Assembly: GCA_965648905.1 (NCBI GenBank)
Contig: CBFGIT010000051.1
Span: 1-12,995 of the forward strand
Length of the DNA: 12,995 bases
Direction of reading: 5' to 3'
Source: a candidate division WOR-3 bacterium
GTDB lineage: Bacteria > Hydrothermota > Tepidihabitantia > Tepidihabitantales > Tepidihabitantaceae
Position 1 is the stretch's first letter. Each line of letters begins with the position of its first letter. The notes below the pieces were generated by a model that saw only the letters and a program-made list of their open reading frames with translations, did not search any database and was not told the DNA's origin. Of this stretch, positions 389 through 12,995 are shown in pieces. Made by a program: the position numbers and the translations under genes.

Positions 389-532
389 GGGGCCGGGAAA
401 CCTTCGCATTCCCGCTACCAGCCTCCCGGCCCCTCTTCTGTATTCGGCCGCGCACGCGGCCAGGAACCGGCCTGGACTGCGGGCTGCACGCCCGGGTTGT
501 CCGTGGACCGCCCGGTTCCGGCGCCCCGAGTG
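389..532 (-). ncRNA. Structured spacer (Sp-like) segment of the DGR RNA, 3' of TR
   Basis: Non-coding gap directly 3' of TR with several inverted repeats: 389-398/424-433 (10 bp, GGGGCCGGGA), 446-452/455-461 (7 bp), 463-470/512-519 (8 bp, GGAACCGG). The position matches the spacer that primes cDNA synthesis in the Bordetella BPP-1 DGR. The boundaries are inferred. Confidence 0.65.
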
Positions 533-658
533 CTGGCACAGCGAAAACCGTTGTTGTTGTTGCGGTTCGACGGGTCATTGTTGTTGCGATACGCGCACCG
601 GAAGTTGTCCGGATTGTCGTTGTTCCACGACCCGCCGCGCACCACGCGGTTGTCGCCA
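533..658 (-). repeat. DGR template repeat (TR)
   Basis: 126 nt starting just downstream of the avd stop. In target frame it reads [41 protein letters not shown] with 13 AAY, 4 GAC and 1 TAT codons. It aligns to three VRs with mismatches at its adenines. Confidence 0.97.
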
Positions 659-669
659 TCGGCCGGGCC

Positions 670-1029
670 CTATTCATCATCATCTCGCATTTCTCTTATG
701 CTTCTCTGCCAGCCGCCGATCATGCGGCCGACATCATCCACAATCCTGGCCACGTACTCATACTGCCGGACGCTGATAAGACGTTCCTCCATGCACAGCC
801 GCACCTGGAACCGCAACCGCTCCAGCAGAAGGTTAGCCTGCCGCAACCGGGGCATACGGTCCCGAGAGTACCGCGCCTCGATGAGCTGGTCAAGCACGTC
901 GTAGGTCGTTCCGAGCATACGGTCGCCGAGCACGAACTTAAGGTCGCGCGGCAGTTTGCGCACGCGCTGCGTCATCTCACGGCACAGGTCATACGCCCTG
1001 GTGATCACAATCAGGTCGTCAGTCGCCAT
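670..1029 (-). CDS. avd: DGR accessory variability determinant (Avd, four-helix-bundle family), 119 aa
   Basis: MATDDLIVITRAYDLCREMTQRVRKLPRDLKFVLGDRM...LERLRFQVRLCMEERLISVRQYEYVARIVDDVGRMIGGW has the bAvd-like pattern (P+..+F.LG.R, C-terminal G+MIGGW), is basic, and lies immediately 5' of TR. Start moved from 1098 to ATG 1029 because the upstream part is the non-coding post-VR element. Confidence 0.93.
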   Translation of the reverse strand: MATDDLIVITRAYDLCREMTQRVRKLPRDLKFVLGDRMLGTTYDVLDQLIEARYSRDRMPRLRQANLLLERLRFQVRLCMEERLISVRQYEYVARIVDDVGRMIGGWQRSIREMRDDDE

Positions 1030-1058
1030 AGACTCATCCGGTTTCCTTGGCAAAATCG

Positions 1059-1116
1059 GCCGCTCGCTTCGCTCGCGGCACAAGTGGTAAAGCAGCAAAG
1101 CAGCAAACGGTAATCA
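1059..1116 (-). promoter_or_regulatory. Post-VR cis element, copy 1 (IMH-like tract plus hairpin)
   Basis: TGATTACCGTTTGCTGCTTTGCTGCTTTACCACTTGTG followed by the hairpin GCCGC-GA-GC-GAA-GC-GA-GCGGC (1059-1079). It is present after VRs and absent after TR, as expected for the IMH versus IMH* asymmetry. Confidence 0.75.
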
Positions 1117-1887
1117 TCGGACAGTCCTGGCACAGCGAAAACCGTCGTTGCTGGCGCGGTACGACGGGGCATCGCGGCCGCGATACGCGCACCGGAAGAC
1201 GACCGGACCGTCGTGGAAGTGCCACGACCCGCCGCGCACCACGCGGTTGTCGCCACTTTTCGGCAGTGTCAGGTCCCCTCGCTTGTACCGGTCATAGGCT
1301 TCCCTATCATACCAGTCTTCACACCACTCCCAGACGTTTCCGGCCATCTGGTAGAGTCCCCAAGGACTGCACCCTTCAGGATACTGCCAAACCCCACAGG
1401 TCGTATCACCACCCCTGTTCCCGTAATTCCGGCACCGGCGCCCAGCTTCCCAGTCGTTTCCCCACGGATACTCTCTTCCATCCACGCCCCGCGCGCCTTT
1501 CTCCCATTCCAGCTCGGTCGGCAGGCGCAGACCCGCCCACCTGCAGTACGCAGTCGCATCGCCCCAGCTCACGCAGACCACCGGGTGATCCGCTTTCTCC
1601 GGAGGAAACGTCCTGCCTTTCCACACCGGTGTGCCAAAGTCTGCCCGGTCCGGTGGCCGGTGGCCGGTCTCGTCCACAAACCGCTTGTACTGCGCGTTGG
1701 TCACCGGGTGAATCCCGAGATAGAACCCGGGCAGCTCGACCGGAAACTTCTCTTCCCCGGCCAGGAACTTCCCTGCCGGCACAAGCACCAGCAGGCTGTG
1801 GTCTTTCGGGTTCTGGATGAGCGGCTCGGCGCCGGCTTCATCAAGTACCCAGTCCCAGCATCTAATGGTGACCTGCTCCTCTACCAC
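1114..1887 (-). CDS. DGR target protein 1, stand-alone FGE-sulfatase/CLec-fold domain, 257 aa
   Basis: Motifs [70 protein letters not shown] start overlaps the Hsp70 TAG stop. C-terminal VR. Confidence 0.95.
1127..1255 (-). repeat. Variable repeat VR1
   Basis: 129 nt. Versus TR: 18-19 substitutions (depending on gap placement), all at TR adenines, plus one extra codon in the W-N-N-D-N-P segment (WHFHDGP). Confidence 0.96.
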
Positions 1888-3509
1888 TACAGCCTTACAA
1901 CCGGATGGTCCTTGAGCATGGTCTTGCTGGTCAGGTTGTCAATCACCGTGACCAGCAGGCGGCGGTGTTCGTCGACCCGGAACGAACACAGGAAACGCTT
2001 CTTGTCGCGCTCCAGGTTGACAGGCGGGTCCGCCACAATGAACGTCGGTGATTTCCGGTTCAGACACCGGTACTCGAACTGGGTCTGCACCCGGCTTGTG
2101 CCGCACAGCCTGCCGTCTTCACCGATAATCGGGCCGGTTGCGTCGCGGCGTTTCATCTTCGAGACCTCGTAGATGAACAGCCCGAGCCGGGTCTGACCCT
2201 CGACACTGCCCGGCAGCCAGAGCTGCACCGGCGCTTGCGGGTCAGTCGGGTACTCATCACCACTCTTGAAGAGCACGGTGAAGACGTACCGGTTCTGGCT
2301 GCGGCTGAACCCCTCGATGGCGTAGTCGTGCTGAAGGAACGGCAGCACGACGCCGCGGCAGGCACCGCGCGCCACCGCGTCGAACGGCCGCTCCAGGTCC
2401 ACCCGGGAATCGAACTCACTGGTCAGGTACTGCCTTACGCACGGCATTAGGCTCGTGCCGCCGATCACCATCACGCGGGTTACGTCGGCCCGACGCATGC
2501 CGGCCCTGAGCGTCGCGTTCTCCAGCGCCAGCTCCACGGTCTCGCGCACGCGCCGGGTGAAACCGCGCGCCAGGAGCAAACAGCCGAGACAACCCCGGGT
2601 CGGGTCTTCGTTCCGGCCGGGCTCGCCCCGGCGGCAGGCATCACAGTGGCACGTGTAGGTGGTCTGAAACAGCCGGGAGCGCGCGTCGGCCAGCACCGTC
2701 ATCTGTGCCTCCGACTCTCTGGAAAGCTCAATCTTCACCTGCTCGGCCTGGCGCAGGATGACTGCGTCGAGCTCCCGACGCTCGGCCCCTTCCAGCCCGT
2801 GCCTTGAGCAGAAGTCGTCGGCCAGCCACTGGTCGATGTCCATCCCACCGAGGTCGGCTCCGGCTTTGCCCAGTTGCACGGCTTTGGGGTTACCCGGGTC
2901 GGTTCGGTCGAAGCGGACCGCAGATACGTCAAGGGTGCCGCAGCCGAAGTCAAAGACGATGAACCGGTCGTCGGCCCGCGCGCCGTCCTGGTACCCGAAG
3001 ACCGAGGCGGTCGGTTCATCCAGCACCCTCAGCCGTCTGATACCCAGCGACTCGGCGATGCGGCGCAGCCAGTCCTCGAAGTGCTCGAACGCCTCGACCG
3101 GCACGGTGAACGTGAACTCGTCGTCCCGGAACGAGACCAGGTTCCCGGCATAGCCGAGAAGCAGTTTGAGGAAGTCCTCGCCGGCCTGGGCCGGGCTTTT
3201 GTGGCCCTGCGGGGTCGGCCGGCGCTGGGTGTGCTCTTGAGCGATGCCGCGCTTCATCCAGCGAATCGTGTGCCGGTGCTCGGCCAGCCCGCGGGAAAGC
3301 ACCTGGTCGCCAATCAGGGTCTCTTTCTCCGAGTAGTGGATGAGCGACGGCGCCACATGCACCACCTGCTCCGGATGGTTCGGCCCGAGCCGGTACCGGA
3401 ACTCGGTCGTGATGCCCGGCATCGCCATCGTCTCGACCGCGCCGTTCGCTTCGTTCAACCGGGCCATCACGGTATTGCCGGTGCCGAAGTCTACCGCGAC
3501 CTTGCCCAT
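1887..3509 (-). CDS. Atypical Hsp70/DnaK-family protein, 540 aa
   Basis: Hsp70 nucleotide-binding motifs [64 protein letters not shown]. Short divergent C-terminal region with no evident helical lid. RBS AAGGAGGAG upstream. Confidence 0.92.
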
Positions 3510-3510
3510 C

Positions 3511-4059
3511 CTACTCCTCCTTTGCGCTCACCATCGCCTTCTGGAGCACCTTCTCGCCCAGACGGTATCCGGGCAGGCGCACGGTCACCGGCGTGCCGTC
3601 GTGTACCGTGCCGCCGCTCATCCGTTGGTGAAACCGGACGTCGAACCTGCCTGTTTCGCCGACTCGGCCGACCGGCTCCAGCCCGGCGCGGGCCAGTTCC
3701 TTTTCCAGGCTGCGAACCAGCCCGGCCATGTCTCGGGCCTGGACGTCTTTGCCGGCCTCGGCGAGCGTGGCCAGCGCATCGAGATTCGACAGCGGCCCGC
3801 ACAGACGCCGGAACAGCTTCTCCATCTCCGACTGCCCGGCCTGGCCGAATGCGCGGTCCCGCTCGGCGCGCAGCGCCTCGTACTCCCGGCGCAACCGTTC
3901 GATCTGCTCGTCACGCTCGCGCAGGTCCATCTCCAGCGTGGCGACTCTAGCCTGTGCCTCGGCGACCCGTACGTCGTCCGGGCCGCCTGGCGCAACCGCG
4001 CGGCTGCAGAATGCCTGCCACAACCTCGTCCAGTAACCTGGCTTGCTCCTGCTCGTCAT
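3511..4059 (-). CDS. GrpE-like nucleotide exchange factor, 182 aa
   Basis: N-terminal coiled coil followed by GrpE-like C-terminus GLEPVGRVGETGRFDVRFHQ...TVRLPGYRLGEKVLQKAMVS. Directly upstream of the Hsp70 gene, with GAGGAGG RBS. Confidence 0.85.
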   Translation of the reverse strand: MTSRSKPGYWTRLWQAFCSRAVAPGGPDDVRVAEAQARVATLEMDLRERDEQIERLRREYEALRAERDRAFGQAGQSEMEKLFRRLCGPLSNLDALATLAEAGKDVQARDMAGLVRSLEKELARAGLEPVGRVGETGRFDVRFHQRMSGGTVHDGTPVTVRLPGYRLGEKVLQKAMVSAKEE

Positions 4060-4068
4060 GGTACCTCC

Positions 4069-5343
4069 TCAGTGCTCGCGGTCCGCAAACACTGGCTCTG
4101 CCGGCATGTACTCATCCGGCGTGACAACAACCGGCTCGGGCGGGGCCGGTGCTGTGGTCCGATACGCCAGAATTGTCCGCAGCACCTTGCGCGCCGCGCC
4201 CAGACGTCCGGCAAAGGCTTCGGCCGGGGCCGCGTTCAGCGATTCAAGGTCGTTTGGGGTCGCCTTAGCCGGCCAGAACTCAAGCACCCCCGCGGCCTTG
4301 CACAACTCCTTGACCCAGCAGTTGTCATCCTCGACCTTGTCCTTGAGCAGAGCTGCTGCCCCAAGCCCGGCAGCGTGACCGGCCAGGCGCACGAGCCAGT
4401 GCGGACTTGAGTTCACCGCTGCGGCAGCGGGTGACCCGGGCTGGACCTTTGTCGCCAATGCCGAGGCCAGCCTGACACCCTCAGGCGGGTCAGCGGACTT
4501 GAGCTGCTCGGCAAGCTCAGAGTCGCTCATCCCGGCATACTTCGGGTCTTGGCCCTCGGCCAGCCAGCGCTCGAACAGGCTGCTCGTGGCGTCCGGCTTC
4601 TTCGGTGCGGCCAGGTCTGGCCCGAGCGTGTCGGCCAGCACCTGCTTGAGCAGACTGCGCAGTTCCGGGACGTCCGGCTCCCAGCCCGCGTTCTGCAGCT
4701 TCTCCAGCATCGGCAGCGAGTAGCGGAGTGGTATCTGAAGGCAGGCATCAAGCACCCGGCCCCACTCCTTGTGCCGGACAAACGACTCCAGCGCAAACCC
4801 GATTTCCCGCTCGTTGCACTCGACCAGCGGCTTGGGCCCGACCTTGCCGCCGGTCTGGCCGGTCCCGATGAACCCGACGCAGCGCTGGTCGCCACTGCGT
4901 ACCACTTCCATTACGTGCTCTTTCACGGTCGCATCGGCCCGATCGTACTCCATCCGGAGCGCCTGGAAGTCATAGTCCTCCTTGAAGTACTCGTCCAACT
5001 GACGGGTGACAAACAGGAACAGGCAGCGGCGCTCGTGGTCCTGCGGCCGCAGCTTACTGCTCACTGCTATCCGTGCGGCCGCGCCGGTCGGGTCGCCAAT
5101 CGCGACGTCGCAGAGCGCGTCAACCGCGGGCTGGGCCGCAAGCGAACTCAGCGCATCCTCGGCCGCGAGCGCGACTGCGGGGTCAGGGTTCGCAAGCGCT
5201 GCGACCAGAATCGGCACTGCTTCGGGTGAGTCCCGGTTCTCGGCCAGCCGGTGTACTGCCCGGCGCCGCCGCATCCGGCCGATGAGCGGAAACGTCGCGT
5301 CCAGAGCGCGCCGCCACTTCTCAAACTGCTTCGTTGAAGCCAT
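4069..5343 (-). CDS. HEAT/PBS-lyase-like repeat protein, about 424 aa
   Basis: AVHRLAENRDSPEAVPILVAALANPDPAVALAAEDALSSLAAQPAVDALCDVA is HEAT-like and the rest looks largely helical. ATG 5343 chosen because AAGGAG lies 6 nt upstream of it but abuts ATG 5349. Confidence 0.72.
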   Translation of the reverse strand: MASTKQFEKWRRALDATFPLIGRMRRRRAVHRLAENRDSPEAVPILVAALANPDPAVALAAEDALSSLAAQPAVDALCDVAIGDPTGAAARIAVSSKLRPQDHERRCLFLFVTRQLDEYFKEDYDFQALRMEYDRADATVKEHVMEVVRSGDQRCVGFIGTGQTGGKVGPKPLVECNEREIGFALESFVRHKEWGRVLDACLQIPLRYSLPMLEKLQNAGWEPDVPELRSLLKQVLADTLGPDLAAPKKPDATSSLFERWLAEGQDPKYAGMSDSELAEQLKSADPPEGVRLASALATKVQPGSPAAAAVNSSPHWLVRLAGHAAGLGAAALLKDKVEDDNCWVKELCKAAGVLEFWPAKATPNDLESLNAAPAEAFAGRLGAARKVLRTILAYRTTAPAPPEPVVVTPDEYMPAEPVFADREH

Positions 5344-5434
5344 TGTCATCTCCTTTCACAATCTGCACAATTCTCCAAGCCACTGCCTGGCCGATGCAAC
5401 ACAACATGTGATGCGCTTCAAGAAAAACCGCGCG

Positions 5435-5492
5435 GCCGCTCGCTTCGCTCGCGGCACAAGTGGTAAAGCAGCAAAGCAGCAAATGGTAATCA
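5435..5492 (-). promoter_or_regulatory. Post-VR cis element, copy 2 (IMH-like tract plus hairpin)
   Basis: Same as 1059-1116 except one base in the tract. Hairpin at 5435-5455. Confidence 0.75.
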
Positions 5493-6233
5493 TCGGACAG
5501 TCCTGGCACAGCGAAAACCGTAGTAGTAGTAGTAGCGGAACGACGGGGAAATGAAGTAGCGATACGCGCACCGGAAGGAGCCCGGATAGTCGTAGTTCCA
5601 CGACCCGCCGCGCACCACGCGGTTGTCGCCACTTTTCGGCAGTGTCAGGTCCCCTCGCTTGTACCGGTCATAGGCTTCCCTCTCATACCAGTCTTCACAC
5701 CACTCCCAGACGTTACCTGCCATCTGGTAGAGTCCCCAAGGACTGCACCCTTCAGGATAGGCCCAGACAGAGCACGTGGTCTCGCTGCCCCTGTTACCCC
5801 AATTCCGGCACCGGCGCCCATCTTCCCAGTCGTTTCCCCACGGATACTCTCTCCCATCCACGCCCCGCGCGCCTTTCTCCCATTCCAGCTCGGTCGGCAG
5901 GCGCAGACCCGCCCACCTGCAGTACGCAGTCGCATCGTCCCAGCTCACGCAGACCACCGGGTGATCCGCTTTCTCCGGAGGAAACGTCCTGCCTTTCCAG
6001 ACCGGCTCACCCCAGTGGGCCTTATCCGGCGGACGGTGCCCGGTCTCCTGCACAAACTTGAGATACTGCGCGTTGGTCACCGGGTGAATCCCGAGATAGA
6101 ACCCGGGCAGCTCGACCGGAAACGGCCCATCGCCTTCATCGCCCCCCTTGCCCCCGGCCAGGAACTTCCCTGCCGGCACAAGCACCAGCAGGCTGCGGTC
6201 TTTCGGATTCTCGATGAGAGTAGAAGGACCCAT
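5490..6233 (-). CDS. DGR target protein 2, stand-alone FGE-sulfatase/CLec-fold domain, 247 aa
   Basis: Same FGE-sulfatase motifs as target 1, with a near-identical core. ATG overlaps the TGA of the kinase-AAA gene (TGATG). C-terminal VR. Confidence 0.95.
5503..5631 (-). repeat. Variable repeat VR2
   Basis: 129 nt. Versus TR: 16 substitutions at adenines, 1 non-adenine change (GAC to TCC), and one extra codon (5 TAC versus 4 AAC). Confidence 0.96.
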
Positions 6234-8569
6234 CAGCTCACGCTCGCCTGCCGGGCATTGACCGCGGCCCAGCGGGTGATTTCGGCAATCTCGCGCGCCC
6301 GGGAACGCGAAAGCGGATAAGTACGCCCGGCCGCGGCAACGATGTCCGCGGTCTGTAGCTCACGCCCTTGGTCAAAGGCGTAGAACAGCCCGTCGTGGAT
6401 GCAGTGCTCGATTTCCGCGCCCGAGAAGCCGTCGGTTGCCTTGACCACCTCGGTCAGGTTGAACTTCGCCGGGTCCCGGTGCCGTTTGGCAAGGTGAATC
6501 CGGAGGATGGCCTCACGTTCAGACGAGTCGGGCAACCCGACGAAGAATATCTCGTCGAACCGGCCCTTGCGCAGCAGCTCAGGCGGCAGGCGGCGGATTT
6601 CGTTGGCGGTGGCGACAACAAATACCGGGCTGGTCTTGTCCTGCAGCCAGGAGAGGAATGACCCGAACACCCGTGCGGCCACACGCCCGGACACCGGCCC
6701 GCTCACACCGGCAAAGCCCTTTTCGATTTCATCTACCCAGAGGATGCACGGGCTGACCGCCTCGGCCGTCGCAATCGCCATGCGCAGATTGGCCTCGGAA
6801 GCGCCGACAATCGAGCCAAAGATGCGGCCCACGTCAAGGCGCAGCAACGGCACGCCCCAGGTGCCGGCAAGGGCGCGGGCCGCCAGACTTTTGCCGCAGC
6901 CCGGGACCCCAACGAGAAGCAAGCCTTTGGGTACGGGCAGGCCGGCATAGCGGGCGGTTCGGGCAAAGGCCGGGTAGCGCTCCGCGAACCAGTGACGCAG
7001 GTTCTCGAGCCCGCCGATGTCGGCCATGGTTTCGCTGTTGTGGTAGTACTCAAGGATGCCGCTTTTGCGGATAATCTGGCTCTTGGCCTCAGCTACCAGT
7101 CGCGGCGTTGTGGAGGAAATGCCGTTCTCGCGGATGGCCACGGCACGCAGAGCACGGCCGGCCTCGGCCATGGTCAGCCCGCTGAGCGCACGGAGAAGGA
7201 CCTGCCGGTCATCGGCGCTGAGCCGGGACTCCTGCCCGCCGGTCTTGAGGTCGGCCAGTATGCCGTTGAGCAGCGGCTCGAACTCCTCCTGGTCCGGCAA
7301 ACCGTAGGCAAACAGCGTCACCTCTTTGTCAAGCTCGTCCGGCAAAGCATACCGGGGCGAGAGGAAGATGACGCTCTTGCGGGTCGTTCGGACCGCACGG
7401 GCGGTGTCACGGATGAGCCGCACCGTCACCGGCGAGAAGTGGCGGTGGATGTCGAGGAAGACGTAGATGGCGTCGTCCGGGCTTTCGATGGCGTGGACCA
7501 GGGCGGCAGTCGGGTCTTCGATCGTCCGTTCGCTCGTCAGGTTGCCCTGGGAGTCGCGCAGGCCCCGGGAGGCACTCCAGACCAGCACATGTCGCTCGCG
7601 CCGGCGCTCCTCGCCGAGGCGACCGGCGATTCGCCGGACCGCGTCAAGCACGCGCTGCTCCTCCCAACTGACAACATATACCAGGGGCAGACTGGCGCGG
7701 ATAGTCGTCTCGAGGCGGCCCTCGTCGCCGCGAACCGATCGGGTCCGGCGGGCGATGAGCTCCAGTTCGTTGGCCAGTTCCTCGGCAGTGAGGTAGCGGC
7801 GTTCCGGGTCCTTGTCCAGCATCCGGCGAAGTACGCGGATAAGGCGGACGTCGACTTCTGCCTCCAGCAGTGCCGATTCGTCCAGCGGCGAGTACATGAT
7901 GGCATGCATCAACTCGCCGGTCTCGCCGTTGAACGGCCGTTGACCGGTGAGCATCTCGTAGAACGTGACCCCAAGAGACCACAGGTCGGCATTGGTCCCG
8001 GCTGCGCCCTGGAACTGCTCGGGTGCCATGTAGGCCACGGTGCCGACCCGGGTGCTCGCAACCGAACTGGTGTGGGCAAGCACCCGCGCGATGCCGAAGT
8101 CAAGCAACTTGGGCGTGCCGGCACCGGCGAGGAAGATGTTGGCCGGCTTGACGTCACGGTGGAGGATACGCAGGCTGTGGGCAAAGGCGAGCGCCTCAGC
8201 CACCAGGCCGGCGTAACGCAGCGCCTCCTGCTGAGGCAGACGATGGTCGCGCCGCAACCGCGCGCTGAGGCTCTCTCCTTCCAGATACTCCATAACCAGG
8301 AAAGCGATGCCCTCGTGCCGCTCAATGCCGTAGACCCGCAGGATGTTGGGATGGATGAGCCGGCTGCTCACGGCAAGTTCCTTCTCCAGCTCGGCGATGC
8401 CCTCCGGGTCCTGGTGGTGCGGAAACCCGAGGGCGAAGACCTCGCCGTCGTCCCGCCGCGCCCGGTAGACGCTCTTGAATGCGCCGCTGCCGAGAAAAGC
8501 CTCCAGGACATAGGGGCCAAAGCGCTGGCCGAGCTTGTACGGGCCACCGGGCCGATTCATGCCGTTCAT
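6233..8569 (-). CDS. Hanks-type Ser/Thr kinase fused to a Ycf46-like AAA+ ATPase, about 778 aa
   Basis: Kinase motifs [42 protein letters not shown]+ motifs Walker A GVPGCGKS, Walker [26 protein letters not shown]. Start placed at ATG 8569 (GAGGT upstream, just after the previous stop) instead of 8644. Confidence 0.92.
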
Positions 8570-8570
8570 G

Positions 8571-10220
8571 CTATACCTCGAACACCCGCCGGCGCTTCTG
8601 GGGCACGGGCGGAGCTTCGGACTCGGGGAAGGCCGCTGCGTCAATCGGCTCGGCAGGCTTGACGGCGCTGGAGGCCAGACGCCACTTCTTCTCCGCGTCC
8701 TGACGCAGGCGCGCTATCCGGTCCGGCATCGAAGCCGAAAGCGGCACGGTATCGCGGATTGACTGTTCGAGGTGCCGGTCTTCGAGCCTGCTTGTCTCTC
8801 CCTCGGCAAAAGCAGCAAAGAGCGCGGATACGACTGCCTGTTCGATTTCGGCGCCGGAGAAGCCTTCGGTGGCGGCCACGTGCCGGGCAAGGTCGAAGTC
8901 GCGCGGGTCCCGGTGGTGCTTGGCCAGGTGGATGGCGAGAATCATGGCCCGCTCCTGCGGGTTGGGCAGGTCGATGAAGAAGATTTCGTCGAACCGGCCC
9001 TTGCGCAGCAGTTCGGGCGGCAGACCTTCGATATCGTTGGCCGTTGCCACGGTGAAGACCGGCTTGCGGTTCTCCTCCATCCACGTGAGCAGGCTGCCGA
9101 AAACCCGCTGGGAAACGCCGGAGTCACCGAAGTCGCCGCGCGAGCCGGCCAGGCCTTTTTCGACTTCATCAATCCAGAGGATACAGGGTGCCACCGCCTC
9201 AGCCAGCTTCAGCGCCCGGCGCATGTTCTCCTCGGACGAGCCGACCAGCCCGGAAAAGACCTTGCCCAGATCGAACTTCAAGAGCGGCATCTTCCATTCC
9301 GACGAGACCGCTTTGGCCGAAAGGCTCTTGCCGCAGCCCGGGACCCCGACCAGGAGCAACCCGCGCGGGTTGGGCAGACCGAACTCCCGGGCTGCCTCGG
9401 AAAATGCCTTCTGGCGCTGGCGCAGCCACTTCTTCAGTTCATCCAGACCGCCAATGCTGCCGAACCGTTCGGGCGTGGAGTAGAACTCGAGCATCCCGGA
9501 CTTGCGGATTATCTGCTCCTTTTCGGCCAGAAGCAGCGGGATGTCGTCCGGGTCAATCCGGCTCCGGGAGACGAGCACCTTGGCCAGAGCGTTCTCGGCC
9601 TCGGCTTCGGTCAGGCCCAAGAGTGCCTTGACCACTGCCTCGCGGCCGCCGTCAGCCAGTCTGACTTCGACCCGCGGGTTGTCGCGCACCTGGTCCACGG
9701 TGTCGTCGAGCACCCGGGCCAGCTCTTCCTCGTCCGGCATTTCTAGGTCGAGCACCGTCAGGTCCTTTTCCAGTTCGGGCGGTATTTTCAGCACCGGCGA
9801 AAGCAGAACCACGGTCTTGCGGGACGCGGCAAAAGGTTCGACCACGTCGCGCAACTGGCGCACGACCAGGGCCGAGACCGGGCTGCGTTCATCCATGAAC
9901 GTGTGGAAGTCGAGCAGGATGAACACGCCCGGGTCCCTTGCCTCGAGCAACAGGGGCAGGATGCGCTTCGGGTCGGCCGCCCGGGCATCGACCACCTTGC
10001 CGTCAAGGGTGCAGAGTCCGCGTGAGACCGACCAGACCAGGGGCCGGCGCTTTGCCAGCTCGCCGCCGGCGACCGCGCGGCCGATCAGCTTGATGGCACG
10101 CTCTTCCTCCGCGGTCACGACGTAGAGTATCGGATAGCCGGCCCGAACGTGAACCTGAAACTGCTGCTGAAACTCGGTGGTCTTTGAGGGCAGCACTGCG
10201 GTCTCTTTGGCCGCGCTCAT
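8571..10220 (-). CDS. Ycf46-like AAA+ ATPase, 549 aa
   Basis: N-terminal YPILYVVTAEEERA and degenerate ATPase-like domain, then [77 protein letters not shown] overlap with the DUF2997 gene. Confidence 0.92.
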   Translation of the reverse strand: MSAAKETAVLPSKTTEFQQQFQVHVRAGYPILYVVTAEEERAIKLIGRAVAGGELAKRRPLVWSVSRGLCTLDGKVVDARAADPKRILPLLLEARDPGVFILLDFHTFMDERSPVSALVVRQLRDVVEPFAASRKTVVLLSPVLKIPPELEKDLTVLDLEMPDEEELARVLDDTVDQVRDNPRVEVRLADGGREAVVKALLGLTEAEAENALAKVLVSRSRIDPDDIPLLLAEKEQIIRKSGMLEFYSTPERFGSIGGLDELKKWLRQRQKAFSEAAREFGLPNPRGLLLVGVPGCGKSLSAKAVSSEWKMPLLKFDLGKVFSGLVGSSEENMRRALKLAEAVAPCILWIDEVEKGLAGSRGDFGDSGVSQRVFGSLLTWMEENRKPVFTVATANDIEGLPPELLRKGRFDEIFFIDLPNPQERAMILAIHLAKHHRDPRDFDLARHVAATEGFSGAEIEQAVVSALFAAFAEGETSRLEDRHLEQSIRDTVPLSASMPDRIARLRQDAEKKWRLASSAVKPAEPIDAAAFPESEAPPVPQKRRRVFEV

Positions 10221-10429: not shown

Positions 10430-10846
10430 CTAGCCGCGTTCGGACAGCACGATGACCACGTCGCCGTTGGCAAGCCTCTCCTCTTCCTCGACGACGAGAT
10501 TCTGCTCGCGGGCCTGCGCGTGGATGAGATTGTAGCTGTACTGCTGGCTGACCTGCTCGATGAAGCTCTGCTGCCGAATCGGCTGGCCGTTGATTCGGAG
10601 CGGGCTGTGGGAGGCCACGCCAAAGTCCCAGTCGGCCACCGCCTCATAGACTTCGCCGCTCCGGCGCAGGCCGATGTCGTATTCGCATTGCGTATCGACG
10701 ACGATTTCGGCCCGCTCCTGGTTGCCGGCATAGCCGCGCACCACGAGGTTTTCACCTTCCCGGAACTGATAGTGCAGGTCGCGCAGGGCCTGCACCAGGT
10801 GCTCTCGCTCACGCATCTGGGTTCGGATTCTCAGAAAATGTGACAT
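10430..10846 (-). CDS. DUF1257 / Ycf35-like protein, 138 aa
   Basis: MSHF..I.T......L..AL.DL, VRGY.G, YDIG, YE.VAD, Q.Y pattern typical of Ycf35/DUF1257. RBS GAGGAGG. Confidence 0.87.
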   Translation of the reverse strand: MSHFLRIRTQMREREHLVQALRDLHYQFREGENLVVRGYAGNQERAEIVVDTQCEYDIGLRRSGEVYEAVADWDFGVASHSPLRINGQPIRQQSFIEQVSQQYSYNLIHAQAREQNLVVEEEERLANGDVVIVLSERG

Positions 10847-10858
10847 TTCGGTCCTCCT

Positions 10859-12418
10859 CTATCGTACGGTTTCTATCACGCGCCGGCCGGTGCCGGCTTC
10901 GGGTTTCTCTTCGCTTGAGGCCGAGAACGCGCGGCCTTCGGTTTTCCACTTGCGCAGCTCCTCGATGACCGCGACGTGCGACCGGCTGATCGGCACGGTT
11001 TCTTCGAGTTTGGCCAGCAGGTCCTGCTGGGTTATCTCCCGTTCACCGTCAATCAGGGCGGCGATTTCAGCCTCTCGTACCGCCCGCTCGATCTCCCGGC
11101 CGACAAAGCCTGTGGCCTTCTCCACCAACTCGTCCAGCCTGAACTGACGGTCGGGGAAGAGCACATGGGCCCGCTTGAGGTGAATTCGGAATATCTCGGC
11201 CCGCTCCCGCTTGTTGGGCAGGTCCACGAAGAACAACCGGTCGAACCGGCCGATGAACTCGGGCGGCAGCCCCTCGAGAAGGTTCGCGGTTCCGACCACG
11301 TAGACCGGGGTCCGGTGTTCCTGTGCCCAAGTCAGAAAGGTCCCGAGCACGCGCGTCGGCGCGCCGGCGTTTATCGAGCGCGGGTCGGCGCCGGCGAACG
11401 CCTTCTCCACCTCGTCAATCCAAAGCACACACGGGCTGACCGTGTCGGCCAGACTCAGGGCCAGCCGCAGGTGCTTTTCCGACTCGCCGAGCAGGCTGCC
11501 GAACACCGCGCCCAGGTCAAGGCGCAGGAGCGGCCACTTCCACAGCCCGGCAATCATCTTCGCCGAAAGGCTCTTGCCCGTGCCCGGAATCCCGGCTAAG
11601 AGCACGCCGCGTGGCAACCAGGAGAGTTTGTCGCGCTTGTCCGCAGCGAAGCACAGCTCCCGGCCCTTGACGTAGCTCTTGAACAGGTCCAGCCCGCCCA
11701 CGTCTGCTTCGCCGGCGGTCGCGGGCCAGAACTCAAGCGCCCCGCTTTCGCGGATGGCGCGCTGCTTTGCCCGGGTCACGAGGTCGATGCCGCGTTCGTC
11801 AAACACGCGGGTCTGGGCCCAGACCCGTGAGAACGCGAGCCGGGCCTGAGTTGTCGTCAATCCCAGAGCCGACGAGACCAGCTTGTCCCGAACTTCGCGC
11901 CGGGGCAGGCGTGACTTGTCCAGCTTCGACGTGAAGTCGGCGAAGAGTGCGTCGAGTTCGGCCTGATTCGGCAGCGGTACGTCCACGACTACCACCTCGT
12001 CCCGGAGTTCGAACGGCAGAGCATGGTCGCGGTCGAGCAGAGGAGTGAGAAAGACCAGGAACTGGCGCTGGGCGCGCAGGCGCGGAACCATGTTGCGCAG
12101 TTTCCTGATGATGGTGGACCGCACCTTCGACGTCCAACTGAGATGGAAGTCCTTGAGCACCACAAGGTGGTCGGGCGGCATGGCCGCGGCCAGATGCGGC
12201 AGTATCGTATCCGAAGTGCAGTCCTTTGACGGCAGGGGTTTCTCACCTTGCCGGAGCGGCTTAAAACCATCGGCAATGTCCCAACTGGTCACACCGAGCT
12301 TCGCGGTTTCCGCAAGTTCGGTCAGTATCCTCAGCGCCCGTTCTTCCTCATAGGTGACCAGGTGCACGAGCGGCACCTGGGCTTCAATCAAAGAAGCCAG
12401 CTCAGCTTTGAAGTCCAT
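10859..12418 (-). CDS. Divergent Ycf46-like AAA+ ATPase, 519 aa
   Basis: PLVHLVTYEEERA, VGGLDLFK, Walker A GIPGTGKS, Walker B VLWIDEVEK, shortened second region of homology LPPEFIGRFD. Start at ATG 12418 with AAGGAG RBS, not 12511. Confidence 0.9.
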   Translation of the reverse strand: MDFKAELASLIEAQVPLVHLVTYEEERALRILTELAETAKLGVTSWDIADGFKPLRQGEKPLPSKDCTSDTILPHLAAAMPPDHLVVLKDFHLSWTSKVRSTIIRKLRNMVPRLRAQRQFLVFLTPLLDRDHALPFELRDEVVVVDVPLPNQAELDALFADFTSKLDKSRLPRREVRDKLVSSALGLTTTQARLAFSRVWAQTRVFDERGIDLVTRAKQRAIRESGALEFWPATAGEADVGGLDLFKSYVKGRELCFAADKRDKLSWLPRGVLLAGIPGTGKSLSAKMIAGLWKWPLLRLDLGAVFGSLLGESEKHLRLALSLADTVSPCVLWIDEVEKAFAGADPRSINAGAPTRVLGTFLTWAQEHRTPVYVVGTANLLEGLPPEFIGRFDRLFFVDLPNKRERAEIFRIHLKRAHVLFPDRQFRLDELVEKATGFVGREIERAVREAEIAALIDGEREITQQDLLAKLEETVPISRSHVAVIEELRKWKTEGRAFSASSEEKPEAGTGRRVIETVR

Positions 12419-12440
12419 CTCTTTCTCCTTTTCGAATTGA

Positions 12441-12493
12441 TGTGGCAGAGGAATCCATTCCTCGATTCTTGCGGATAGGAGTCCGCTCCCACA
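12441..12493. repeat. REP-like inverted doublet (two GTGG-footed hairpins)
   Basis: Plus strand TGTGGCA-GAGGAAT-CC-ATTCCTC, and minus strand TGTGGGA-GCGGA-CTCCTA-TCCGC. Two hairpins face each other, each preceded by GTGG, like GTRG-family REP doublets. Confidence 0.55.
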
Positions 12494-12529
12494 CAAGTGG
12501 TAAAGCAGCAAAGCAGCAAATGGTAATCA
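12492..12529 (-). promoter_or_regulatory. Post-VR cis element, copy 3 (IMH-like tract)
   Basis: TGATTACCATTTGCTGCTTTGCTGCTTTACCACTTGTG is identical to copy 2, but the downstream hairpin is different. Confidence 0.72.
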
Positions 12530-12995
12530 TCGGACAGTCCTGGCACAGCGAAAACCGTAGTAGTAGGTGCGGTACGACGGGGCAGTGCTGTAGCGACACG
12601 CGCACCGGAAGTGGCCCGGAGAGTCGTTGAGCCACGACCCGCCGCGCACCACGCGGTAGTCGCCACTTTTCGGCAGTGTCAGGTCCCCTCGCTTGTACCG
12701 GTCATAGGCTTCCCTATCATACCAGTCTTCACACCACTCCCGGACGTTTCCGGCCATCTGGTAGAGTCCCCAAGGACTGCACCCTTCAGGATAGGCCCAG
12801 ACAGAGCACGTGGTCTCGCTGCCCCTGTTACCCCAATTCCGGCACCGGCGCCCATCTTCCCAGTCGTTTCCCCACGGATACTCTCTTCCATCCACGCCCC
12901 GCGCGCCTTTCTCCCATTCCAGCTCGGTCGGCAGGCGCAGACCCGCCCACCTGCAGTACGCAGTCGCATCGCCCCAGCTCACGCAGACCACCGGG
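12527..12995 (-). CDS. DGR target protein 3, FGE-sulfatase/CLec-fold, 3' part (5' end beyond the right edge or continued from 1-333)
   Basis: [33 protein letters not shown]...GNVREWCED...RVVRGGSW...GFRCARTVR, open to the edge of the window. Confidence 0.94.
12540..12665 (-). repeat. Variable repeat VR3
   Basis: 126 nt, colinear with TR. 17 substitutions, all at TR adenines. Confidence 0.97.
12974..12995 (+). repeat. Terminal direct repeat, right copy (identical to 1-22)
   Basis: Exact 22-nt match to the start of the window. Confidence 0.95.

Follow-up and report, generated by a model that had tools for sequence, protein, structure and literature searches.

The DNA analysed here is a contig of 12,995 nucleotides from a candidate division WOR-3 bacterium (CBFGIT010000051.1 of assembly GCA_965648905.1), and this whole stretch is referred to as the window. 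On its minus strand, which also carries all other features of the window described below, the gene at 6233..8569 encodes a protein of 778 aa, in which a Hanks-type kinase is fused to an AAA+ ATPase that we take to be Ycf46-like, a name that follows the JGI label on homologs. The kinase domain (residues 17-285, 7715..8521, as delimited by Pfam, an AlphaFold2 model and fold matches to PknA and PknB) has a glycine in place of the VAIK lysine and a lysine in place of the third glycine of the Gly-rich loop. Our data support the view that this is a convergent, bacterial relocation of the WNK type, which is fixed in a family of kinase-AAA+ proteins that extends across phyla. A preliminary description of the same DNA had pointed to the two exchanged residues; the AAA+ fusion and the operon, which is linked to a diversity-generating retroelement (DGR), are additional to what it covered.

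Lysine swap: reading, conservation and origin

The Gly-rich loop reads GSGAFKSVY (8465..8491). Its lysine K32 (codon AAG, 8474-8476) stands at the third-glycine position (G55 of PKA) and, in the structural model, opens strand beta2. Strand beta3 reads VFALGFPH (8417..8440), with G48 (codon GGG, 8426-8428) at the position of the VAIK lysine (K72 of PKA), and is followed by the PHxQD motif of the family. The preliminary description had named both codons and both positions, and our reading of the minus strand agrees with it exactly. No lysine is present in the window protein between K32 and the alphaC helix (ELEKEL), whose glutamate E64 (8378..8380) is the presumed salt-bridge partner of K32. The catalytic loop HRDVKPAN (H137-N144, 8138..8161), the DFG motif (D157, F158 and G159, 8093..8101), D195 and R258 are all present, and so is the APE motif (A182, P183 and E184, 8018..8026), which had already been described as intact.

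HMMER alignments against solved kinases of the PknB type left the placement of the gap between beta2 and beta3 ambiguous. The closest canonical kinases read GSGGFG(T/A)VY...VA[IL]K[VI]PH[RK]Q, while the family reads GSGAFKSVY...VALGFPH[HQ]Q. Since both have the PHxQ motif in common, this motif anchors the register and assigns G48 to the VAIK-lysine position. On this alignment, G and K have traded places relative to the closest canonical kinases. Of the features that characterise Hanks-type kinases (PF00069), the third glycine of GxGxxG and the VAIK lysine on beta3 are both missing, being replaced by K32 and G48, and judged by its sequences the family is an atypical Hanks-type kinase in exactly these two positions.

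The swap was followed through 120 listed homologs. Wherever the N-terminus is present, the loop has F-K and the beta3 position is occupied by G or C. An alignment of 107 rows (the window protein and 106 homologs) was built on this list. Omitted were P0002, which is identical to the window protein, four proteins with long inserts between beta2 and beta3 (P0025, P0029, P0061 and P0083), the near-duplicates P0090, P0091 and P0092, and ten fragments (P0095, P0096, P0102, P0105-P0107, P0113, P0114, P0119 and P0121); P0123 and P0125-P0127 were added from a whole-protein search of a library clustered at 50%. The aligned family members come from several phyla, and their full-length identity to the window protein lies between 39% and 79%. 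K occupies position 32 in 106/107 rows and R in 1/107; position 48 holds G (93 rows), C (9), A (4) or S (1) and never K. A46, E64, H137, R138, D139, K141, P142, N144, F158, G159, P183, E184, D195 and R258 are invariant (107/107), and D157 (106/107) and A182 (104/107) are nearly so. Homologs with a normal beta3 lysine, or without conservation of the loop lysine, had been named in the preliminary description as evidence that would speak against it; neither kind was seen in the alignment, the one R at position 32 aside. In the sequences aligned here, the swap is fixed across the family.

Because every listed homolog with an N-terminus shows the swap, the pattern is not a product of chance or error. 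An origin of the two residues in a sequencing or assembly error, or in a mutation private to the strain, has virtually no probability: the same two residues recur throughout the listed homologs, which come from independent assemblies and several phyla, while the frame is uninterrupted and the codons can be read unambiguously. The homolog listing and the 107-row alignment refute this explanation, as the preliminary description had anticipated when it judged two such changes unlikely to be sequencing error. Sequencing runs were consulted as contigs that cover the window piecewise, none of them spanning the K32 codon; a 285-nt contig from run X1, which possibly derives from the source sample, matches 8150-8434 without differences, the GGG codon included.

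Covariation of the loop lysine with loss of the beta3 lysine, which had been proposed as a check, was evaluated by a motif scan of the best 120 shorter matches to the kinase domain. Eighteen of them combine a loop lysine with a residue other than lysine at beta3 (16 G, 1 C, 1 A), and all 18 are fragments or relatives of the swapped family. The canonical combination of G in the loop and K at beta3 was found in 87 matches, and A/K in 3. Three further matches were miscalled by the regular expression, the VAxK lysine being visible in the printed string, and in 9 (fragments or variant loops) no loop was found; those of the 9 that have the N-lobe carry the VAxK lysine. Mixed states, with lysine at both positions or at neither, did not occur among these 120 matches. 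Outside the family, 89 kinase matches at 81 loci of genome contigs have G (84) or A (5), and never K, at the loop position. The source genome has four other kinase-like matches, of which the three with an N-lobe are all canonical.

Two phylogenetic trees were calculated, both of them quick, with local supports and subsampled rows, and with no WNK sequence among the rows. The first (FastTree, 92 kinase domains) comprised 43 family members (every third and the most distant ones), 46 canonical kinases (every second) and 3 proteins of distant architecture; one branch, with an SH-like support of 99%, had every canonical row on the same side. The second, of the same type, had 100 rows: 35 from the family, 40 canonical ones and 25 canonical kinases with the PHxQ motif. 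Here the family stood on one side of a branch with 99% support and the PHxQ group was recovered with 100%, and family and PHxQ group together were set apart from the remaining canonical kinases with 87% support. When this tree is rooted on a generic kinase, the PHxQ clade is the sister of the family. As this sister clade consists of canonical G/K bacterial kinases that already have PHxQ, the swap would have arisen once and inside the bacteria; the trees are most simply read as a single event along the family's stem, in an ancestor that was canonical and already bore PHxQ. The canonical sister family is represented by locus L081 (9851-10990) and about 60 similar loci among L081-L160, mostly from Acidobacteriota. 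The sister kinase of L081 (379 aa) ends in a CxxC...CxxC zinc ribbon.

An AlphaFold2 model of residues 1-290 (mean pLDDT 88.5, pTM 0.87) has the ordinary bilobal fold of a kinase. Strand beta2 spans residues 32-39 and thus begins at K32, beta3 spans 44-50 and alphaC 55-68, and the activation loop (161-174) is the only part of low confidence. The best fold matches in VIA were PknA of M. tuberculosis (Z 30.8, root mean square deviation 2.4 over 260 residues) and PknB (Z 30.7), and Stk1 of S. aureus was also among the best matches in Foldseek and VIA. By sequence, the best matches in the PDB were Stk1, StkP and PknB, followed by Aurora A. Among the matches listed (the best 60 of 2696 for PDB sequences, the best 50 each for Foldseek and VIA) are PknB, PknA, Stk1, Aurora, CaMKII and RAF; WNK is not among them and is, within these matches, not the closest structural match. 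Because the closest matches are bacterial and the sister clade is a canonical G/K bacterial group, the resemblance to WNK is best seen as convergent, as the preliminary description had thought probable. Under common descent the swap would have been inherited together with that of WNK, and here it falls on the family's own stem.

Probable catalytic competence of the kinase domain

We consider it likely, from the pattern of conserved residues, that the protein is a catalytically competent Hanks-type Ser/Thr kinase which uses the relocated K32 as its ATP-anchoring lysine. Activity is favoured because the residues of phosphotransfer other than the beta3 lysine are invariant, the alphaC glutamate included. 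This glutamate is kept in 107/107 rows although its usual partner is the beta3 lysine. The intact motifs of the family contrast with the decayed catalytic loops of distant relatives fused to CHAT or EAD7 (P0191 and P0220), which show the effect of relaxed catalytic constraint in the clade. According to this model, the lysine that anchors ATP has moved from beta3 (K72 in PKA, G48 here) to the third-glycine position at the start of beta2 (G55 in PKA, K32 here), from where K32 would reach ATP's alpha and beta phosphates and pair with E64. Position 48 only ever carries a small residue (G, C, A or S), which would make room for K32, while D139, K141, N144 and D157 would function as in ordinary kinases. 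Cys, found at this position in 9/107 rows, is also the residue of WNK at the beta3-lysine position, as given in a 2025 review (PMC12599244).

Several observations weigh against activity. By the common sequence definition, a pseudokinase lacks the VAIK lysine, the HRD Asp or the DFG Asp, and in the window protein the VAIK lysine is gone; HRD Asp and DFG Asp are retained. The sole exception at position 32 among the 107 rows, P0127, has Arg. The distant relatives P0191 and P0220, which are fused to CHAT or EAD7 domains, have a basic loop residue (R or K) together with G at beta3, and they have lost catalytic residues, reading HCDLNDRN or HCDLSPDT and DIG or NVG. Conservation of the catalytic loop could, moreover, serve the binding of nucleotide without phosphotransfer. 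Kinase domains of related conflict systems are often inactive (PMC7159879).

These points lead to the alternative of a pseudokinase that binds nucleotide and acts on the AAA+ ring as an ATP-dependent conformational switch or a scaffold, with K32 aiding only nucleotide binding or the stability of the loop. The missing VAIK lysine and the frequent inactivity of conflict-system kinases (PMC7159879) are in agreement with it, and P0191 and P0220, with K or R in the loop and decayed HRD and DFG, indicate that a non-catalytic role is viable in the clade. Nevertheless, D139, K141, N144, the FG of DFG, the PE of APE and the alphaC glutamate are invariant in 107 rows (D157 in 106/107) down to 39% identity, which would be unusual for a dead enzyme, and the exact positional swap is that of WNK, which is active in spite of fitting the same formal definition of a pseudokinase. 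We therefore regard the switch or scaffold as rather unlikely.

A kinase that is active, but draws its catalytic charge from another basic residue, with K32 being incidental, appears very improbable. Candidates would be R/K36 on beta2 and K63 beside the alphaC glutamate, since position 36 is R or K in 92/107 rows and position 63 is K or R in 97/107. The basic residue of VY[RK]A, which stands four positions after the loop, is, however, equally common in canonical relatives that keep the beta3 lysine and hence not specific for the family, and K32 alone covaries perfectly with the loss of the beta3 lysine and sits at the WNK position.

A competent kinase with K32 as anchoring lysine thus remains the reading that we prefer. 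The preliminary description had also raised a sensitivity to chloride, for which we found no supporting feature. Chloride sensing was set aside, as F158 of the DFG motif is Phe in 107/107 rows and nothing else indicates an anion site.

Gene architecture, operon and DGR

The gene for the fusion starts with the ATG at 8567-8569 and not with the TTG that opens the mechanically derived open reading frame 6233-8644; its stop codon is at 6233-6235. The sequence GAGG (8576-8579) lies 7 nt 5' of this ATG, and the stop codon of the upstream gene is at 8571-8573. The identical database protein P0002 has the same 778 aa, and homologs share its start position. Pfam PF00069 (Pkinase) matched the kinase domain with E 1.1e-50 and 172.9 bits (curated cutoff 31.7), and the C-terminal module was matched by PF00004 (AAA, 7e-29) and AAA_lid_3. 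This AAA+ module with its lid (6350..6922) is intact in its motifs and shows all classical features of AAA+ ATPases, namely Walker A (GVPGCGKS, 6887-6910), Walker B (WVDEIE, 6722-6739), the sensor-1 Asn (ATAN, 6602-6613), the Arg-finger motif (RKGRFD, 6554-6571) and the AAA lid. For the middle region of about 250 residues (about 286-540, 6950..7714) no Pfam family was matched; it shares homology with the N-terminal domain found in Ycf46-like AAA+ proteins that stand alone. Because stand-alone AAA+ proteins of 500-550 aa (from the library clustered at 50%) align over residues 285-776, with 40-50% identity, the fusion can be understood as a kinase joined to a whole Ycf46-like AAA+ protein. Public annotations name the family members merely 'protein kinase' or 'serine/threonine protein kinase/26S proteasome regulatory subunit'.

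The fusion gene belongs to a long operon. Upstream of the fusion gene are a gene of the FGE-sulfatase/C-type-lectin fold, truncated at the contig end (12527..12994, Pfam 1.4e-41), AAA+ paralog a (550 aa, 10859..12511, Pfam AAA 3.1e-23), a gene for a DUF1257 (Ycf35-like) protein of 138 aa (10430..10846, PF06868 2.5e-22) and AAA+ paralog b (549 aa, 8571..10220, Pfam AAA 4.5e-31), the stop codon of which ends 1 nt before the ATG of the kinase gene. Downstream follow a gene of the FGE-sulfatase fold (247 aa, 5490..6233, Pfam 7.1e-58 over residues 16-244), a HEAT-repeat protein (426 aa, 4069..5349, HEAT_2 5.3e-06, slightly under the curated cutoff), a GrpE-like nucleotide-exchange factor (3511..4059, Pfam GrpE 3.2e-11) and a divergent Hsp70-like ATPase (540 aa, 1887..3509, Pfam HSP70 1.1e-19), the last three being conserved in loci of the family. 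The remaining part holds a further FGE-sulfatase-fold gene (1114..1887, NCBIfam), a bAvd-like DGR accessory gene (670..1098, PF22296 1.7e-17) and the N-terminal part of a fourth FGE-fold gene, again cut by the contig end (1..336; its stretch 1-279 has 92% identity to 5940-6218). Among themselves, the three AAA modules have identities of 37-45%, and paralog b has 45% identity to the AAA part of the fusion. In paralog a, Walker A and B are intact, and no match was seen to R.GRFD, the Arg-finger motif that the modules of the fusion and of paralog b contain, in keeping with a specialised subunit within a mixed ring. The DUF1257 gene stands between the two stand-alone AAA+ genes, and the pairing of Ycf35-like and Ycf46-like proteins presumably recalls the plastid and cyanobacterial gene names.

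Loci of the family were collected with a degenerate DNA pattern for the beta3 motif, using one genome per species, which gave 86 stretches with 23 family loci among them. Locus searches with the whole protein or the kinase domain returned, among the matches listed, mostly AAA-only or generic kinase loci and one family locus (L001), and the whole-protein search of the clustered library gave mostly stand-alone AAA proteins. The 23 loci are from Planctomycetota (several families), Hydrogenedentota, Acidobacteriota, Polyangiaceae, 'Deltaproteobacteria', Nitrospiraceae and Verrucomicrobiota. AAA paralog b adjoins the fusion gene in 17/23, either directly or with an FGE gene in between, and the other six are short contigs. 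DUF1257 is found in 9/23, HEAT, GrpE and Hsp70 together in 6/23 with a partial set in 3 more, and one to seven FGE-fold genes are interspersed. Identities of 60-67% across phyla suggest that the gene cluster moves horizontally. The identity of DUF1257 across the 9 related loci is 62-66% (55% in L162), and L175 has a second copy that is 31% identical. In L001/L162, from a metagenome-assembled genome of Polyangiaceae, genes for an activase-like radical-SAM protein (Fer4_12), a protein resembling CotH kinase and a second Pkinase protein, this one canonical, lie directly downstream of the kinase-AAA gene (11319-16406 in L001).

The DGR was recognised by a repeat search and by alignment of its template repeat (TR) with the variable regions (VRs). 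The TR (500..640) is rich in AAC codons, lies beside the bAvd gene and matches the 3' ends of three FGE-fold genes with 81-85% identity. The VRs are located at 1123-1237 (gene 1114-1887), 5499-5613 (gene 5490-6233) and 12536-12647 (gene 12527-12994; 85% identical to the TR). Of the mismatches between TR and VRs, 18/19, 16/18 and 16/17 are on TR adenines, 50/54 in total. With VRs at the 3' ends of genes of the FGE/C-type-lectin fold and differences on TR adenines, the locus has the hallmarks of a DGR. One AAC-rich template serves these three genes and probably the fourth FGE-fold gene as well. No reverse transcriptase gene is present in the window, which is a whole contig that ends in a cut FGE gene. 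The source genome has two reverse transcriptases elsewhere, one of which is of the size typical for DGRs and has a weak TR-like copy nearby, and in 6/23 family loci a DGR reverse transcriptase or bAvd is found inside the homologous cluster. Since the N-termini leave no room for a signal peptide (the Pfam match covers residues 16-244 of 247), the FGE-fold proteins would be hypervariable binders in the cytoplasm. Outside the VRs, the DNA of the FGE-fold paralogs has 92% identity along about 300 nt (1213-1512, 5589-5888 and 12623-12922; likewise 1-279 versus 5940-6218), which suggests recent duplication or gene conversion among the DGR targets. Another region of the same genome (G000:C3:80776-91186) holds two canonical Hanks kinases and, less than 10 kb from them, a reverse transcriptase of DGR size (387-aa frame) and a weak TR-like sequence; this region may be a second signalling locus linked to a DGR.

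PADLOC did not match a system on the locus and gave hits at the level of domains only (kinases of PD-T4-6 and mad6, AAA of IetA). Longer distant relatives of the fusion (P0191, P0220, P0161 and P0201) combine CHAT, EAD7 or TIR with a degenerate kinase-like domain and the same AAA+ module. A role in conflict or immunity is supported by this finding, as EAD7, CHAT or TIR are carried by relatives of the kinase-AAA protein itself, and by analogy the composition of the operon points to a conflict or sensing system. In such a system, the three AAA+ paralogs would form a hetero-oligomeric assembly, with the kinase as the N-terminal arm of one of the three Ycf46-like subunits. Engagement of a ligand by a diversified binder would allow the kinase arm to phosphorylate the bound target or a component of the system, and the whole would work as a conflict or surveillance system driven by chaperones and AAA+ ATPases. 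As a further and quite doubtful extension, the relocation of the lysine might be functional instead of neutral: the site vacated at beta3 (Gly48) would open a cavity at the back of the ATP site for an anion or a small ligand, in the way put forward for chloride in WNK1, so that the kinase would be a gated switch coupling DGR-diversified cytoplasmic receptors to a three-subunit AAA+/Hsp70 machine. If this applied, the operon would represent a horizontally mobile surveillance system of a kind not described before, its receptor repertoire being adaptive-like and its central component a sensor kinase in the style of WNK.

Comparison with known systems

In its logic, the operon matches the NTP-dependent conflict systems described by Kaur, Burroughs, Iyer and Aravind (2020, PMC7159879), and in particular those of the MoxR-vWA 'VMAP ternary' type. 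In that paper, chaperone-type ATPases likewise occur together with DGR-diversified cytoplasmic domains of the FGE/lectin fold (FGS). Hsp70 and GrpE, both present in the operon, are found in some of those systems, and EAD7, CHAT and TIR, which belong to the vocabulary of the same source, also occur on the distant kinase-AAA relatives. The operon differs in its core, which is made of three classical Ycf46-like AAA+ paralogs, DUF1257 and the kinase instead of MoxR-vWA and GTPases; DUF1257, Ycf46 and CDC48-type AAA are not mentioned in the text of PMC7159879 as far as it was available. Loosely analogous is the ClpC/McsB/McsA system, where an AAA+ unfoldase receives substrates marked by a kinase (bioRxiv 10.1101/2022.09.15.508104). 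The main text of Roux et al. (2021) on DGR targets does not name kinase, AAA, Hsp70 or DUF1257, and a description of the DGR/AAA+/Hsp70/kinase cluster was not found in the literature searched.

The kinase domain has the same fold as PknA and PknB of M. tuberculosis and Stk1/PknB of S. aureus (Z 30.8 and 30.7 in VIA, E about 1e-21 in Foldseek); its sequence identity to them is about 30%, and every C-lobe motif is shared. These kinases differ in having GxGxxG and the VAxK lysine, and in C-terminal PASTA or transmembrane parts without an AAA+ module. The canonical PHxQ kinases from Acidobacteriota and other phyla, such as that of L081, have PH[RK]Q right after beta3 and 33-41% identity and are the closest outgroup; they keep GSGGFG and VA[IL]K, stand alone and are not fused to AAA+. 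CAK-chloro, a subfamily of the choline/aminoglycoside-like kinases (Kannan et al. 2007, PMC1821047), is similar to small-molecule kinases and not of the Hanks type, uses Arg instead of Lys and has lost the alphaC glutamate. The bacterial pseudokinase families CP1, DYD, DLHK, GLW and ActPs1-3 are set apart by their descriptions, with Lys replaced by Arg or with HRD or DFG lost. A loop lysine or an AAA fusion does not appear in the descriptions of these families in the bSTK atlas preprint and a 2025 review, the main texts of which lack the term 'AAA'. Nor does a bacterial equivalent of WNK appear in the searched text of the 2025 bacterial kinase atlas or the review; the family tables of the atlas preprint may carry the family under a different name. 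In the literature searched, we found no bacterial Hanks-type kinase with a loop lysine.

The family would provide a second, independent and cleanly polarised occurrence of the swap, and with a canonical sister clade that has the same flanking motif it amounts to a natural experiment. It indicates that the kinase fold can reach the 55/72 swap and keep it as a stable solution, and it makes small bacterial domains available for structural and mutational study, including mutants with the reverse swap. It also cautions against labelling every kinase without VAIK automatically as a pseudokinase. A second point of interest is that a conserved operon, found across phyla, unites DGR-diversified cytoplasmic lectin-fold proteins, three AAA+ ATPases, an Hsp70/GrpE pair and a kinase.

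The closest parallel to the lysine swap itself is offered by the WNK kinases. WNK (e.g., WNK1, with K233 on beta2 and Cys at beta3) and the family both have lysine at the position of PKA 55 and a small residue other than lysine at that of PKA 72, both retain the alphaC glutamate, HRD and APE, and 9/107 family members even have Cys at the beta3 position. The WNK loop reads GRGSFKTVY, as quoted in the preliminary description, and is locally similar to that of the family. The chloride site of WNK involves a DFG variant that contains Leu, from which the family differs by the invariant Phe of its DFG motif. In PMC1821047 and PMC4718504, WNK is described with lysine at the third-glycine position and a different residue at beta3, an arrangement with which K32 and G48 of the family agree as claimed in the preliminary description, and K233 from beta2 is required for catalysis. 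Halide binding by WNK is reported in PMC4718504, which also names the WNK1 entries 3FPQ and 4Q2A, and according to PMC1821047 WNK is the sole protein-kinase family to function in the absence of a beta3 lysine. The family is no relative of WNK, and it is distinguished from WNK by its fusion to AAA+ and its DGR-linked operon.

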